In this document: positions 3,634 to 9,690 of the stretch, one piece after another
How the letters are laid out: each line of letters opens with the position of its first letter
Position numbering within the stretch: position 1 is the stretch's first letter
IMG/VR virus record: IMGVR_UViG_3300031555_004297
Strand: one strand, 5' to 3'
Length of the DNA: 64,000 nucleotides
DNA from: a virus
Taxonomy: Duplodnaviria > Caudoviricetes
The notes under the pieces: generated by a model
Database searches by the model: none
What the model saw: only the letters and a program-made list of their open reading frames with translations
Told to the model about the DNA's origin: nothing
Made by a program: the position numbers and the translations under genes

Positions 3634-3747
3634 AACTATTTTATAATTCATTCAAATGCCATTGGATGATAAAGGAATTTCATTCATATCAGTTGCTCCA
3701 TTTTTGTCTACATACTCTTAGCTGAGTATGTAGACGCTCTTTTGTTT
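3634..3747 (+). ncRNA. Candidate small RNA 2 (late promoter, anti-SD/start segment, 12-bp terminator)
   Basis: AACT-ATTTTA-TA at 3634-3645; CATATCAGTTGCTCCA at 3685-3700; stem 3706-3717/3724-3735 followed by a T-rich tract. Confidence 0.45.
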
Positions 3748-3762
3748 GAAAGGAGAATTTAT

Positions 3763-4578
3763 ATGCTTACACCAGTTTTAAATCCTTTATATGAGAATTT
3801 AAAGAAAGAGATAAAGCAATATGAGATAAATGAGCAATTATCATTTGATGAAACGCTCCAAGAATTAAGAAAGGACAAAGAAGATAATATTTATTCTATT
3901 TCTGGTCCAGATAAATATACTGGATCTGTATTTAGATCTAATAACTGTGGAGATTTTATGGTTACAGAATATTTCAATTATGATAAAATAGCCATAGTAT
4001 TTATGAATAGCGGATATAGAATGCTTGCTAGAGCTAATAATATCAATAAAGGTGAAGTCAAAGACCCTTATGCAAAATCTATTATGGGAGTTGGAAGTAT
4101 TGGAGTTGGCCCTTATAAAGTTGATGGTTCTCCATTTGAACGAATGATCTATTCTAGATGGAGAGGAATATTAGACAGATGCTATGTAAAGAAAGAACGA
4201 CGAAAAACAGTTCATTTTGAATGGCACAATTTCCAATACTTTGCTGCTTGGTTCACAGCAGAATTCTATTTGGTCCCATACAACACAATGTATGACATGG
4301 TAGTCGATAAGGATGTTCTAGTTCCAGGAAACGAAGAATATGGTCCTTATAGATGCCTGATACTCCCTAACTTTATAAATGCAAAAGTTCAGCTAAAAGA
4401 CTTCGAAATCGACAGAATTGAACGCCTTCAGAGCGGTACCATGACACAGTTTGAGATATTAAAGCTTTTTAAATATAAAGAAGAGAAAGAAGCCCGTATA
4501 AGATCCATGACGGAGGAATATCAAAATATTTTACCGCCGCATATATTTTTGGCAATTAAGAACTATAGAATGTTTTAA
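3763..4578 (+). CDS. Free-standing phage HNH-type homing endonuclease
   Basis: RBS AAAGGAG before ATG 3763; motifs YSRWRGILDRCY, EWHNFQYFAAW and DKDVLVPGNEEYGPYRCLILP typical of this phage endonuclease family. Confidence 0.75.
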   Translation: MLTPVLNPLYENLKKEIKQYEINEQLSFDETLQELRKDKEDNIYSISGPDKYTGSVFRSNNCGDFMVTEYFNYDKIAIVFMNSGYRMLARANNINKGEVKDPYAKSIMGVGSIGVGPYKVDGSPFERMIYSRWRGILDRCYVKKERRKTVHFEWHNFQYFAAWFTAEFYLVPYNTMYDMVVDKDVLVPGNEEYGPYRCLILPNFINAKVQLKDFEIDRIERLQSGTMTQFEILKLFKYKEEKEARIRSMTEEYQNILPPHIFLAIKNYRMF

Positions 4579-4647
4579 GCTCTCCAAGATTTTCCAAAAG
4601 TCCTAAATGCACGTGCTTCAAGCGATATTATAATTTAAAAAGGAGTC

Positions 4648-4659
4648 AACTACTAAATA
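4648..4659 (+). promoter_or_regulatory. Late-type promoter of the DGR target operon
   Basis: AACT-ACTAAA-TA immediately before RBS AAGGAGG. Confidence 0.6.
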
Positions 4660-4685
4660 ATTCCAATTAAAAGGAGGAATTTAAT

Positions 4686-4823
4686 ATGATTAAAATTCGT
4701 AACACCCCCCCCCCATGTCAGATTAGCGTAAAATCTTTCACGGGGCTCTCTTCCCGAGAGGTAGTTGGGGAACACAAATCAAATGATGTTAACCACATTT
4801 CAAAGAGGGGAGGTGTCCTGTAA
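4686..4823 (+). CDS. 45-aa leader ORF with C10 tract, coupled (TAATG) to the DGR target gene
   Basis: RBS AAGGAGG 4671-4677; MIKIRNTPPPCQISVKSFTGLSSREVVGEHKSNDVNHISKRGGVL*; stop 4821-4823 overlaps ATG 4823. Confidence 0.6.
   Translation: MIKIRNTPPPCQISVKSFTGLSSREVVGEHKSNDVNHISKRGGVL
4705..4714 (+). repeat. Poly-C homopolymer (C10), possible slippage/phase-variation tract
   Basis: 10 consecutive C in an AT-rich genome, inside the leader ORF. Confidence 0.85.
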
Positions 4824-6223
4824 TGGGTCAGGCTTTAATTTCGCGTGGTGGTGGAGTTGGTGGTGCAGCAAAAGCTAAGGTGGAGATTATTGCTCCTCTT
4901 GGCGCAACACTTACGATATCCCAAGGCGATGTTGTCTTTACTAGAGAAGTAGAATCTTCTCCTGTGGAGATGAGCCTTGGGTATGGCGTTTGGACAATTT
5001 CTGCGTCCGGCGCTGCAACTAAAACCATCGATATTGATGTATTGAAGGTGTATGAAGTGAATGTAAGAGATGTAACTTATGGTATCAGTATTGATATGAG
5101 CAACGGCGCTCCTGCCGATGCTGTTACATATACTGATGATGCAGTGGGTTACTCCGCCCTGAGTTGTAACGATTCCACAGGTGCTTGTGATTACGGCAGC
5201 TGGGAAGGTGCAATTACAGGGATAATTGGATGTAAGCCTTGTCTTTATAAAGACGGTGCTCGTGTTGCATATCTCAATCCGAACAATTATGCTCAGCTTG
5301 AGAATGGCGGTGCCGCAGATATTACTTCCGGCAATGCTGGTGAAGTAATGGTTGAATTTAAGAAGACTTGGTATAAGTATGCAGTTTCTGGAGATACTTT
5401 GACTTTCCAGGTTGCCAACTACGATAGAACTGCAGATGGATTTGTCTGTTCTGCATTTAAGTCGAATGATGGCACTGCTACTGTAAAAGATTTTATGTAT
5501 TTCGGTGCTTATGAGGGCTATTCTGAAGGTGGAGATGATAAGTGTCATAGTTTGAGCGGTAAATCCGTTTGGAACAATAACTACTGGTCTTATTCTACTT
5601 TCAGAGATATCTGTAAGGCATTTGGCGCTAGTTATGGTATGGAAGACTGGGTTAAGAGATATTATATTCTCGGTTTGCTCATGCTTGTTACCAAGACTAG
5701 AGGTATTCAGGCCGCAATTGGAGATGGAAATGTCAATTCTGGAGATTTAATTAGTTCCGGATCTATGGATACTAGAGGCTTGTTCTATGGTATTAACGAT
5801 GATGGAAACACTGGCGTTAAAGCATTCGGAATTGAGCATCTCTGGGGTAATACTTATAGTTGGTGTGATGGTATCATTACTCTATCTGAATCGACTATTG
5901 GTCTTAAGGAGTGTGCTCCTTATAATGATAGTGGAGAAGGATATACTTCTGTTGCTGATGGAGCTACTAGAGGTTCATGGCAATATCCTACAAAGATGAC
6001 TCCTGTTCTTGGAGGAGCAGCAGTTGTAGCATCTACAACTCAGTCAGATTCTAACATTGGCTGGTGCGATGGCGTGTGTGTCGATGACTGCTCTGGCTAT
6101 GTTGCACAGGTTGGCGGCCACTGCAGCGCTGGTATTGGGGGTGGTGGCCCCTTCTGCGTCGTTATCGACTACAGCCCCAGCGACGGCAACGGCTATTGTG
6201 TGGGGCGGCTCGTTTCCGCCTAA
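4823..6223 (+). CDS. DGR target protein: probable receptor-binding/tail protein with C-terminal C-type-lectin-like (Mtd/FGE-type) domain
   Basis: 3' end contains the VR; motifs FGIEHLWGNTYSWCDG, VAQVGG and terminal VGRLV resemble CLec-fold DGR targets; RBS GGGAGGTG. Confidence 0.9.
   Translation: MGQALISRGGGVGGAAKAKVEIIAPLGATLTISQGDVVFTREVESSPVEMSLGYGVWTISASGAATKTIDIDVLKVYEVNVRDVTYGISIDMSNGAPADAVTYTDDAVGYSALSCNDSTGACDYGSWEGAITGIIGCKPCLYKDGARVAYLNPNNYAQLENGGAADITSGNAGEVMVEFKKTWYKYAVSGDTLTFQVANYDRTADGFVCSAFKSNDGTATVKDFMYFGAYEGYSEGGDDKCHSLSGKSVWNNNYWSYSTFRDICKAFGASYGMEDWVKRYYILGLLMLVTKTRGIQAAIGDGNVNSGDLISSGSMDTRGLFYGINDDGNTGVKAFGIEHLWGNTYSWCDGIITLSESTIGLKECAPYNDSGEGYTSVADGATRGSWQYPTKMTPVLGGAAVVASTTQSDSNIGWCDGVCVDDCSGYVAQVGGHCSAGIGGGGPFCVVIDYSPSDGNGYCVGRLVSA
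6069..6223 (+). repeat. DGR variable repeat (VR)
   Basis: 155-bp ungapped match to 6594-6748; 26 mismatches, all opposite TR adenines. Confidence 0.97.
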
Positions 6224-6246
6224 TCCCTCGCCGAGTCAGGGGTGGT

Positions 6247-6276: not shown

Positions 6277-6330
6277 CGACAATATGGCATAGCGAAGCGG
6301 CAGCGTAGCGTGCCATATTGTCGCCTTTTT
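6277..6330 (+). terminator. Second hairpin after VR, probable intrinsic terminator
   Basis: CGACAATATGGCA/TGCCATATTGTCG 13-bp stem followed by CCTTTTT. Confidence 0.6.
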
Positions 6331-6386
6331 ACATAAAATCTTACGATCTTACTTTTAAAACTTTCATAGAAAGGAGGATGGTAAAT

Positions 6387-6908
6387 ATGATTAAATTTAT
6401 TAATAACACTTGTATTTTTCATAAGATGAATAAATGTATACAGAATAAAATTGTTGTTTGTAAACTTACTAACTATTTAAATAGATCATGCAAACACATC
6501 GTTTCGTATTTGAATAGAACTAGTAAATTTATTCATAAGAGTGCTGGACGATGGCATCTTCTAGGGATAACGGAGAATCTCGTTCTGCGGGGTATGGCGT
6601 GTATGTCAATGACAACTCTGGCTATGTTGCACAGGTTGGCGGCAACTACAACAATGGTATTGAGAATGGTGGCCCCTTCTACGTCAATATCAACAACAAC
6701 CCCAACAACAACAACAACAATTATGTGGGGCGGCTCGTTTCCGCCTAAACCTATTCTGGACAATAGATCGATCTTGTCTATAGATCAAGCATTCTCGAGA
6801 GTGTTTTCTATTGCGGATAACTCCGATTCATCGAGTGTTACCAGTGTATATCTGAACTCTTTCTTGACTTCGAATTACAGGATGACTAAGAAGCATTGTA
6901 CAACATAG
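6387..6908 (+). CDS. Possible 173-aa ORF at the usual avd position, reading through TR out of the VR frame
   Basis: Strong RBS AAAGGAGG before ATG 6387; open to 6908; no Avd-like features visible. Confidence 0.3.
   Translation: MIKFINNTCIFHKMNKCIQNKIVVCKLTNYLNRSCKHIVSYLNRTSKFIHKSAGRWHLLGITENLVLRGMACMSMTTLAMLHRLAATTTMVLRMVAPSTSISTTTPTTTTTIMWGGSFPPKPILDNRSILSIDQAFSRVFSIADNSDSSSVTSVYLNSFLTSNYRMTKKHCTT
6594..6748 (+). ncRNA. DGR template repeat (TR)
   Basis: AAC/AAT-rich copy of VR, ending in the G/C element GTGGGGCGGC and CTCGTTTCCGCCTAA; lies upstream of RT. Confidence 0.97.
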
Positions 6909-7094: not shown

Positions 7095-8600
7095 ATGCCT
7101 AAACGAACTGGACATCTATATGAGAAGATGCTTTCAATTAGAGTAGCGAGTGAAGCCTTTGATGGTGCTATGAGAGATAAGAAATTCAAGCACCGACCTG
7201 GTAGCATAGCTTTTATGCTTTACCATAACCGAGACTATTATATTGCTGAGGTAGGTCGTATATTAGAGACAGAATCATTCAAACCAAAGAAGCCAAGAGA
7301 GAGTATTAGATTGGATGCTGGTAGTGGAAAAGAACGCCATATCCAAGCCCCTGCTTTATTCCCAGATCAGATAGTTCATTGGTGTGTAATGCTTGTTCTT
7401 CAAGACATATTTTTGAAAGGAATGGATACATGGTGTTGTGCGAGTGTAAAGGGACGAGGTACCCTTTACGCTAAAAATTTTATTGAACGAACTCTTGATA
7501 ATTCTCAAGGTATAACAGGGCGAGATGCTCCTGAGCGGAAATACAAATACTGTCTAAAAATGGATATTAGAAAATTCTTTGAGAATATTGATAGAGGGAT
7601 TCTAATAGATAAACTAGAATCTAAAATCAAAGATCCTAAAATGATTAAGATCTGCTCAGATATAATTTATTCTGTTCCAGGACAGGGTCTTCCATTAGGA
7701 TACTATACATCTCAATGGTTTGCTAATTTTTATTTGCAATCATTCGATCATTATTTAAGAGAAGTTCTTATGCCTAAGTATGGTGTGGACTTCTATATTA
7801 GATATATGGATGATATGCTTATTATGGGAAGTAATAAAAGGAAATTAGCCCAACTTAAAGGAGAGATATCTCAATATCTTCATGATAATCTTAAGCTAGA
7901 ATTAAAGAATACTACAAGAATATTCTCTATTGCAGAATGTCCGATAGATTATATTGGATTTAGATTTTCTTATGGTAAAACAGTATTAAGAAAGAATATA
8001 TTGCATAGAGCTAGAGGCGCAAATGAAAGACTTTATAATGGTAAATTCCATATTAAAGAATTAAGAAGCTCTATGGCATATAATGGATGGATTCAGAATA
8101 CAGACACCAAACAATATAGAGCTCAGCATATGCAAGGATCTGTATATCTAGAACGAAAGAAAATTAGTGAATTCTCTAAGATTGAGCGATTAGAAACCTT
8201 AGCTTCCGAAAGGTATAAGCGGACTATAAGAATTGAAGAAGATATAATAAATCTTCGTCAAGAAACAGAGCTTGGTGATGGAGTTGTACTTATACGCCAT
8301 TATCCAGATAGGCACGATCAAGTCCGAGTAGTAGCTCGAAGCCGATATAGGTTTCCAGATCAAAACGAATATGAGGAAGAACTTAGAAAAGCTGCTGAAG
8401 AAAAGGCTAATAAGAAGAAAAAGAAACATAAAAAGAAAAAGCATAAACCTGGAGAAGCTTATAGAGCTCCAGCAGAGAGATATTTTGCAGAAGAAGGCAT
8501 GGAAGAAATTTATGCTCGAGATTATAATCAAAATATAAAAGATTATGATATCTATAGAGACCGACAAAACACAAAGGACGATTGGTATAAAGCCAAATAA
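7095..8600 (+). CDS. DGR reverse transcriptase with long basic C-terminal extension
   Basis: Motifs LKMDIRKFF, GLPLGYYTSQWFANFYL (DGR-type SQ) and YIRYMDD; adjacent TR/VR pair. Confidence 0.95.
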   Translation: MPKRTGHLYEKMLSIRVASEAFDGAMRDKKFKHRPGSIAFMLYHNRDYYIAEVGRILETESFKPKKPRESIRLDAGSGKERHIQAPALFPDQIVHWCVMLVLQDIFLKGMDTWCCASVKGRGTLYAKNFIERTLDNSQGITGRDAPERKYKYCLKMDIRKFFENIDRGILIDKLESKIKDPKMIKICSDIIYSVPGQGLPLGYYTSQWFANFYLQSFDHYLREVLMPKYGVDFYIRYMDDMLIMGSNKRKLAQLKGEISQYLHDNLKLELKNTTRIFSIAECPIDYIGFRFSYGKTVLRKNILHRARGANERLYNGKFHIKELRSSMAYNGWIQNTDTKQYRAQHMQGSVYLERKKISEFSKIERLETLASERYKRTIRIEEDIINLRQETELGDGVVLIRHYPDRHDQVRVVARSRYRFPDQNEYEEELRKAAEEKANKKKKKHKKKKHKPGEAYRAPAERYFAEEGMEEIYARDYNQNIKDYDIYRDRQNTKDDWYKAK

Positions 8601-8644: not shown

Positions 8645-8719
8645 GTAAAACTCTTATTTTTCTCTTATATATCATTCGCGTGAAGAAAAAGAATAATTTA
8701 ATTTTCGACACAAATTATT
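8645..8719 (+). repeat. ~75-bp degenerate direct repeat (copy 2 at 9158-9232) carrying an ATATATCAT promoter-like core
   Basis: Shared blocks TTTCTCTTATATATCATT, GCGTGA and TCGACACAAA in both copies. Confidence 0.8.
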
Positions 8720-8754
8720 CTACAATTCAAAAAAAAATAAAAGGAGTTAAAACT

Positions 8755-9087: not shown

Positions 9088-9194
9088 TTCAGGGTTGTAA
9101 ATATATTGAAGAGAGAAGTTCTCCAGACTTCTCTCTTCAATATAACTCAATTAGACTGTAAAAGTCCTTTCTTTCTCTTATATATCATTGGCGT

Positions 9195-9690
9195 GATAAA
9201 AGAGAATGTTTTAATAATCGACACAAAATATTTTCCTATTACATATTCCTGCGTCATGATGAATTTTGAGGCGTGTATTCATCATCGTCGTTTACTGTAT
9301 ATAAACATACGCACATGTCTCCTTTCTTAATTTTGGTTGGGAAGCATCTTATACCTCCATATTGTGGAAATCACACACCTACAACCTGGTTATCCACAAT
9401 TCTGCCTCCTTTCTGACCTACCTCTTCTAAAACTTCTACATATTACTGATCATGAATAAAAGTATAATCAACAGCCCACAACTGTTGATTAGAAATATAG
9501 TTCAATCGAGTAATGGATAAGTTTATAGGTCTCAAAGATATAATATGTACTCATGTCTTGGCAGTTTTACGACAAGTTGTCTAGTATTATTTGGGAATGG
9601 TAGCTCAAATAATATTTAGATGAGGATAATGATTGCTTTTCAATAGCCAGGGTAGAGCTCGTGTACTCACTCTACCCTGGCTTCTTCTGT
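9195..9690 (+). ncRNA. Candidate ~490-nt structured RNA with several C-rich anti-SD tracts
   Basis: Lies after repeat copy 2; no credible ORF; five or more hairpins; tracts CTCCTTTC, ACCTCC, GCCTCCTTTC, ACCTCTTC; ends at stem AGCCAGGGTAGAG/CTCTACCCTGGCT. Confidence 0.45.

Follow-up and report, generated by a model that had tools for sequence, protein, structure and literature searches.

The 64,000-nucleotide stretch analysed here (the window, taken at its full length; IMG/VR record IMGVR_UViG_3300031555_004297, Duplodnaviria, Caudoviricetes) carries a tail-fibre-like gene which is the target of a diversity-generating retroelement (DGR). Immediately upstream of this gene lies a short leader open reading frame (ORF) containing a run of ten cytosines (C10). 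The reading favoured here, with a probability of roughly 0.5, is that this leader belongs to the late mRNA of the diversified fibre gene and that the reading frame set by C10 gates a coupled unmasking of the fibre start site. According to this proposal, a strong Shine–Dalgarno (SD) sequence would drive translation of the 45-codon leader cistron on the late mRNA, and a CU-rich segment located behind a GGGG motif would pair with the G-rich ribosome-binding site (RBS) of the fibre gene, hiding its start. In the C10 frame, ribosomes would traverse the intervening helices, terminate on the UAAUG overlap, expose the fibre start and pass over to the fibre gene. After a replication slip of one nucleotide in either direction, the leader ribosome would halt at 4724-4731, before the masking segment; the fibre site would stay closed and fibre synthesis would fall, until a further slip, or a change by three nucleotides, restored it.

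The gene located downstream of the leader is a genuine DGR target. It encodes a tail-fibre-like protein of 466 residues (4823-6223; PHROG 5302 tail protein, E 2e-52) with 107 homologues, and its 3' end carries a variable repeat (VR, 6069-6226) paired with a template repeat (TR, 6594-6751). Every TR/VR mismatch falls at a TR adenine, and a DGR reverse transcriptase (RT) gene adjoins the pair (7095-8600; Pfam RVT_1, PHROG 1423). These features, like the leader and promoter elements described below, are all on the plus strand. The source contig spans 185,246 bp and encodes a multisubunit RNA polymerase (beta subunit); the phage is a giant gut phage from an uncultured group of jumbo phages with their own RNA polymerases.

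A first-pass annotation, made from the letters of the window, had described a strong SD in front of a 45-codon ORF which contains C10 and whose stop codon overlaps the target start, and this anatomy is borne out in detail. The leader SD (AAGGAGG, 4671-4677) is located 8 nt before the ATG at 4686 and is kept in all relatives; its predicted probability of being unpaired, 0.32, is ordinary. From this ATG, the ORF extends over 45 codons (4686-4823), encodes the peptide MIKIRNTPPPCQISVKSFTGLSSREVVGEHKSNDVNHISKRGGVL (MIKIRNTPPPCQ...GGVL) and corresponds to predictions made by gene callers in relatives. Its TAA (4821-4823) shares the final A with the target ATG (4823-4825), forming the TAATG overlap. 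The C10 homopolymer occupies 4705-4714, in codons 7-10 (ACC CCC CCC CCA, encoding T-P-P-P). As the same annotation had calculated, removal of one C (C9) shortens the product to 14 residues, with a stop at TAA 4729-4731, and addition of one C (C11) shortens it to 13 residues, with a stop at TAG 4724-4726; the target start is reached solely in the C10 frame, or in one differing by three nucleotides, the other frames stopping early. The loop of a predicted hairpin, P1, contains both off-frame stops (4724-4731), which are thus upstream of the segment complementary to the target SD (the anti-SD segment). Fusion of leader and target through a frameshift was considered and rejected, as TAG 4724 closes the target frame and neither off frame stays open beyond 15 codons. 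The tract is located outside the receptor-binding ORF, in a separate upstream cistron, and leader and target are joined in no frame, unlike in Fletchervirus-type arrangements.

The tract stands out strongly from its genomic background. C10 is the sole C or G run longer than 5 nt in the whole 185,246-bp genome, which has a GC content of 36.6% and in which no other such run exceeds 5 nt. In addition, CCC accounts for 12% of the proline codons and Pro-Pro-Pro is encoded twice among 179 long ORFs in a genome-wide count. The lack of any other C or G run above 5 nt, together with the rarity of CCC, indicates that the tract is not a chance feature. It is of negligible probability that C10 arose from errors in sequencing or assembly or is an accident devoid of function, and this can be considered as already refuted, since the same tract is conserved in dozens of independent assemblies, obtained in different studies and belonging to diverged clades. 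A sensor of phage-encoded tRNA-Pro was likewise excluded, because tRNA genes are absent from both the window and the genome, and no Rfam family was found in the window at the gathering threshold.

Conservation of the leader was investigated in 17 contigs gathered through the target protein, irrespective of the state of their leader, and in one more contig (L062) gathered through the leader peptide. This set covers about eight lineages, with targets 49-100% identical, and provided 12 distinct leaders for comparison. In 11 of them, the leader is open for 39-46 codons, is preceded by its own SD and ends at position -2 (UAAUG) or +5 (AUGGGUGA/UAA) of the target start, despite many insertions and deletions. 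Downstream of the tract, the leader frame is free of stops in 11 of the 12 sequences and the two other frames contain 1-5 stops each; the length differences between lineages all preserve the phase of the leader relative to the target start. L001-L003, whose target protein is 56% identical, share the SD, the first 12 codons and the C10 with the window. Over a 2.9-kb comparison with a relative whose target shows 56% identity, the SD, leader start and C10 form the best-conserved 60 nt (95-100% identity, compared with 40-80% elsewhere). The exact leader peptide of the window (P0113) occurs on 33 public contigs. L014 shifts frame inside the tract and has a peptide that differs in its middle part, but its leader still ends at the target start, which suggests that the arrival of ribosomes at this start is selected, more than the peptide itself. 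Such a selection is a signature of translational coupling. Collectively, these comparisons support well that the leader is a conserved cistron translationally coupled to the target, a conclusion that is very probably correct, and from the same sequences we infer that the leader is translated.

The predicted RNA structure provides a rationale for this coupling. All lineages are predicted to form hairpin P1 (4711-4745). Its base joins the final four C's of the tract to an invariant GGGG (4742-4745), and two of its inner pairs covary (AU/GC ratios of 6:6 and 7:3). The hairpin is followed by the CU-rich anti-SD segment CUCUCUUCC (4746-4754), for which two alternatives are predicted, a local hairpin with GAGAG (4756-4760) or pairing with the target SD. 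Pairing with the G-rich target SD (4805-4813) has an ensemble probability of 0.9, and all 12 sequences retain the corresponding helix (133-137:201-205), in which G-U pairs and one double change occur; in L014, the complementarity between both segments (CUCUUCUCU/AGAGAGGAG) is perfect. The target RBS (4805-4815) is consequently predicted to be masked, its probability of being unpaired (0.009) falling within the lowest 4% of the 107 SD-bearing genes of the genome, for which the median is 0.43. In the alignment of the 12 sequences, 95.6% of cells conform to the consensus structure, compared with 43-62% in controls in which pairing partners were slid. Seven pairs show compensatory changes, a number matched by 3 of 500 shuffles, and the covariation score lies beyond all 500 shuffles, with the caveat that the consensus structure was derived from the same sequences that were tested and that its C:G pairs are invariant. 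Pairing of the C tract itself with the target SD was rejected as the masking interaction: it appears in some minimum-free-energy folds only and is unstable to the choice of sequence ends, the ensemble pairing the SD with 4746-4754.

The position of the off-frame stops relative to this structure is critical for the proposed gating. As these stops (4724-4731) are upstream of the anti-SD segment, a slip by one nucleotide should leave the fibre gene masked. In the fold model, when the RNA is opened along the path of an off-frame ribosome, up to 4744, the SD is still paired with 4746/4750, and when it is opened up to 4760, the pairing between SD and anti-SD is lost. The first-pass annotation had cautioned that the effect of the leader might be partial, since the target has its own SD. 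This SD is real (GGGGAGGTG, 4807-4815) and the objection is eased, as the site is predicted to be closed unless a ribosome passes in the C10 frame. A substantial drop in fibre synthesis from an off-frame leader is thus a reasonable model, and one that we consider somewhat more likely than not.

The same structure also lends itself to another interpretation, which is tenable although we rate it below even odds. The C tract could be primarily an RNA element, forming the base of P1 with GGGG and possibly pairing with the GGG that follows the target AUG or with the SD, and thereby setting up a masked, leader-dependent start, slippage being a cost removed by selection. The invariance of GGGG, the prediction of P1 in all lineages with covariation, and consensus sequences that are nearly always in frame are what such an element would leave behind, and naturally interrupted tracts retain four C's at their 3' end and five at their 5' end. 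However, GGGGAGG would be better complemented by something other than an uninterrupted C run, and although four C's are enough for P1, six lineages retain 10-11, with a rare codon used three times. Synonymous codons of the CCTCCACCGC type could replace C10 with both pairing and frame kept.

Regarding the transcript on which the frame-gated leader would operate, an AACT-N6-TA motif is present at 4648-4659 and matches the late-promoter consensus recognized by the non-virion RNA polymerase of phage AR9, A(-11)ACA-N6-U-A/G(+1) (PMC5449584). The motif AAC[AT]-N6-TA is found at the equivalent position in 11 of the 12 aligned leaders. This conserved late-promoter motif predicts a transcript start at A4659 and a 5' untranslated region of 27 nt, and transcription probably starts there from a promoter of the AR9 type. 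The transcript would begin with a 5'-terminal hairpin, AAUUCC/GGAAUU (4659-4681), which includes the 3' part of the leader SD and is predicted in 9 of the 11 promoter-bearing leaders; L060, L013 and L025 contain a compensatory variant, AAAUCC/GGAUUU. The possibility that the tract is a promoter spacer was rejected, since the late-promoter motif ends 46 nt upstream and sigma-70-like matches fail to span the tract. A separate TATTATAAT box (4626-4634), situated 15 nt upstream of the late-promoter-like motif, is conserved across clades and may be a second promoter of another class.

This start site would place the tract at +46 to +55 of the transcript, a location from which one could imagine other kinds of recognition of C-rich RNA, namely loading of the host Rho factor after aborted leader translation, recognition by a poly(C)-binding protein or slippage of the phage RNA polymerase during transcription. 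The classical loading signal of Rho is indeed C-rich, unstructured RNA (PMC12360218). Ten C's are nevertheless much shorter than a Rho utilization (rut) site, transcription of late genes probably relies on the phage's own polymerase and supporting features were not found, making recognition of this kind very improbable.

Natural alleles, read at the level of consensus sequences from assembled contigs, establish that the length of the tract varies. Although C10 or C11 prevails in most clades, C7 and probably C13 also occur, together with interrupted alleles, so that the tract is not of invariant length. The peptide P0114 is identical to P0113 except for one missing Pro (C7), and the same pair of states, C10 and C7, recurs in three more clades (P0111/P0119 and P0118; P0121 and P0126/P0127; P0130-P0132 and P0129). 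One allele encodes PPPP, probably C13. The interrupted alleles encode PSP (C5TC4 in the DNA of L062), PTP, HP and, at the peptide level, LSQ (P0120); C5AC4 and C6ACC tracts are among them. Two sister contigs differ by a single C, L060 having C10 and being on, and L013 having C11 and being off, with a 30-residue product whose stop falls 35 nt before the target; in L016 and L017, C11 is in frame. Tract length thus differs between near-identical genomes in four clades for C10/C7, in the pair L060/L013 and in the PPPP allele. Since look-ups by peptide are blind to alleles differing by one nucleotide, the observed spectrum is skewed toward in-frame changes. With this bias, a rough tally of cluster contig counts (about 122 leader-bearing contigs) gives about 86 of the C10/C11 type, 13 of the C7 type, 22 interrupted and 1 extended. 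These alleles show that the tract can mutate, that consensus sequences strongly favour the in-frame state and that a stabilised tract is viable. It is near certain, on general grounds and with some direct support, that the tract is prone to slippage and that off-frame variants arise.

The same alleles bear on a ribosome-pausing sensor, which the first-pass annotation had put forward as another possible role for the Pro-Pro-Pro motif. Translation of Pro-Pro-Pro with rare CCC codons would impose a pause dependent on elongation factor P near the leader start, throttling or sensing translation capacity and thereby setting the amount of fibre. T-P-P-P-[C/W]-Q is the commonest allele, with PPW in L015, and the low share of CCC among proline codons (12%) and the great rarity of PPP in the genome would suit such a device. 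The motif has nonetheless been replaced by PP, PSP, PTP, HP or LSQ in natural alleles on about 35 of the roughly 122 contigs, so that neither PPP nor a strong PPX stall motif is conserved; this weakens the proposal. In addition, a ribosome paused on the tract leaves the target SD closed in the fold model, and in L014 the region is read in a different frame. A pausing role is accordingly improbable.

Further evidence concerning frame gating comes from related phages. The first-pass annotation had suggested looking for the same leader before paralogous fibre genes, and this was found in L062, a 245-kb contig with two tandem leader-target modules before the TR, one with C7 and the other with C5TC4. 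In the window, positions 6330-6410, located before the TR and comprising an SD and ATG ATT AAA TTT... (MIKFINNT), are almost identical to positions 3945-4010 of L062, that is the upstream region and start of its second leader copy, minus the C tract. Considering this likeness and the tandem modules of L062, the TR locus of the window looks like a decayed second leader-target copy.

Long tracts are not restricted to the leader in this group. The 224-kb genome IMGVR_UViG_3300029305_005724 (G002) carries a C10 leader plus three more long tracts (L064, L083, L093): a G12 inside a fibre-like paralogue, off-frame as assembled, for which G10 or G13 would yield 474 residues; a G10 in another paralogue, in frame, with 510 residues; and a C11 located 45 nt upstream of a gene encoding 449 residues. 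The 289-kb genome IMGVR_UViG_3300035498_000877 (G001) contains five tracts of at least 8 nt (L067, L076, L082, L088, L042), all at codons 6-9 of paralogous target homologues with starts of the form MS(N)KKYLGGG. Two of these genes (G9) are on and the other three (G9, G10, G11) off, which, judged by its sequence, makes this jumbo phage a classical case of a fibre phasome spanning several genes. Among the related jumbo phages, G or C tracts of at least 8 nt are thus concentrated at the 5' ends of fibre genes, with on and off frames both present, and by analogy these poly-G tracts in paralogous genes point to switching. The plain use of G/C tracts by sister phages to switch the frame of fibre genes also speaks against a purely structural role for C10. 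A third clade, IMGVR_UViG_3300035498_000911 (G004), argues that a C tract can work through RNA alone as well. It contains three C10/C11 tracts (L066, L078, L090) before fibre homologues starting with MGEGF..., each flanked by a TTAATCA...GATTAA inverted repeat and followed, in a leader with no evident ORF, by GGGGAGGGAGGG, CCUCCCUUCCCC and an SD. This layout looks like a four-segment leader with alternative pairing. In a distant relative (L031, 3459-3484), a DGR-type RT gene has a C9 just behind its start; with this C9, its first ATG is out of frame and another ATG, 10 nt further on, is in frame, so that its on/off state is ambiguous.

Several observations weigh against frame gating by C10. 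Among the 17 contigs gathered irrespective of leader state, 16 are in frame and L013 is the only one off, and an error of assembly might explain its off-frame state. Stabilised tracts with interruptions (PSP, PTP, HP, LSQ) persist on about 22 of the roughly 122 contigs, which suggests that mutability is dispensable. The fold predictions vary with the chosen sequence ends, pairing between tract and SD being present in some and mostly lost in others, and masking is weaker in some clades (0.19-0.40). Lastly, the C10/C11 leaders of G004 have no obvious ORF; in that clade, the tract must work through RNA or DNA and not via a reading frame. The slipped-strand control of fibre amount initially suggested by the first-pass annotation is supported in part: coupling, frame dependence and tract variation speak for it, and a useful switching rate and a reduction of fibre synthesis are plausible but unproven. 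We infer both the size of the off effect and the use of switching by the phage, and the notion that the mutability of the tract is itself selected as a switch is put forward tentatively, with the odds leaning somewhat against it.

Each component of the proposed system has precedents. Translational coupling through a masked downstream RBS operates in the coat-replicase pair of phage MS2 and in infC-rpmI-rplT, and leader-dependent unmasking is known from ermC, secM-secA and mifM-yidC2. The leader described here resembles the masked-RBS systems in having an upstream ORF with its own SD, a UAAUG overlap and a downstream SD predicted to be buried in a helix. It differs in that no arrest or inducer logic is evident and a mutable homopolymer sets the reading frame of the upstream ORF. 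The retroelement itself is similar to that of the Bordetella phage BPP-1 (Mtd, TR, bRT), with adenine-specific mutagenesis from TR to VR at the C-terminal end of a tail fibre; BPP-1 is not known to have a leader cistron or a homopolymer before mtd.

Regarding homopolymers, Fletchervirus phages of Campylobacter, as presented in later accounts, have receptor-binding protein genes with hypermutable poly-G tracts (Sorensen et al. 2021, Cell Rep 35:109214; via PMC12823448, PMC10877375). Both systems combine a long G/C homopolymer in a lytic phage with a host-recognition protein controlled by reading frame, and the Fletchervirus arrangement, with the tract inside the fibre ORF, is exactly matched by the paralogous fibre genes of the relatives G001 and G002. 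Here, in contrast, the tract is located in a separate, coupled 45-codon cistron, the gene is also a DGR target and the consensus is almost always on. In bacteria, contingency loci with poly-C or poly-G tracts in promoters or 5' regions are described for Bordetella fim, Neisseria opc/porA and Campylobacter genes (PMC1891110, PMC8355987). The leader shares with them a homopolymer far above the genome background at the 5' end of a surface-interaction gene, and differs from them in that its tract is outside both the promoter spacer and the regulated ORF, the predicted promoter being 46 nt upstream.

While homopolymer-controlled phage receptor-binding genes, DGRs and masked-RBS coupling are each already known, their combination, in which the repeat resides in a separate coupled leader cistron before a DGR target, within a module that duplicates as in L062, was not found described in the open-access literature searched. 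If true, a leader-borne frame switch that works by unmasking an RBS would define a new class of contingency locus. Its phase-variation architecture would be new as well, with the repeat in a coupled leader ORF and not in the regulated gene or its promoter, and since screens for contingency loci inspect long ORFs and promoters, leader-borne repeats would be missed by them. Should the switch work, the virus would lower the production of a costly or risky receptor-binding protein in some of its progeny while the gene keeps hypermutating, a form of bet-hedging on top of targeted mutagenesis. A broader picture, which is speculative and rather unlikely as a whole, would have two diversification systems layered on one receptor-binding gene: the DGR would rewrite the fibre tip and the leader homopolymer would stochastically switch or dim the fibre without damaging its ORF, the leader-target unit being a mobile, duplicating module of which one copy decayed into the TR locus. 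In practical terms, promoter, leader and masked RBS form a compact, testable module from an uncultured group of jumbo phages with their own RNA polymerases.

A nucleotide search among cultured phages returned no match, and pattern scans of JGI metagenomes and GTDB genomes returned chance matches in unrelated DNA only. Directly upstream of the leader, an HNH-endonuclease-like gene (3742-4578 in the window) is syntenic in most relatives, and in L062 it is split into pieces of 152 and 96 residues; a look-up based on its protein converged on a single place. Downstream of the RT gene, the window contains an 83-nt direct repeat (8645-8727 and 9158-9240) whose two copies are 81% identical.

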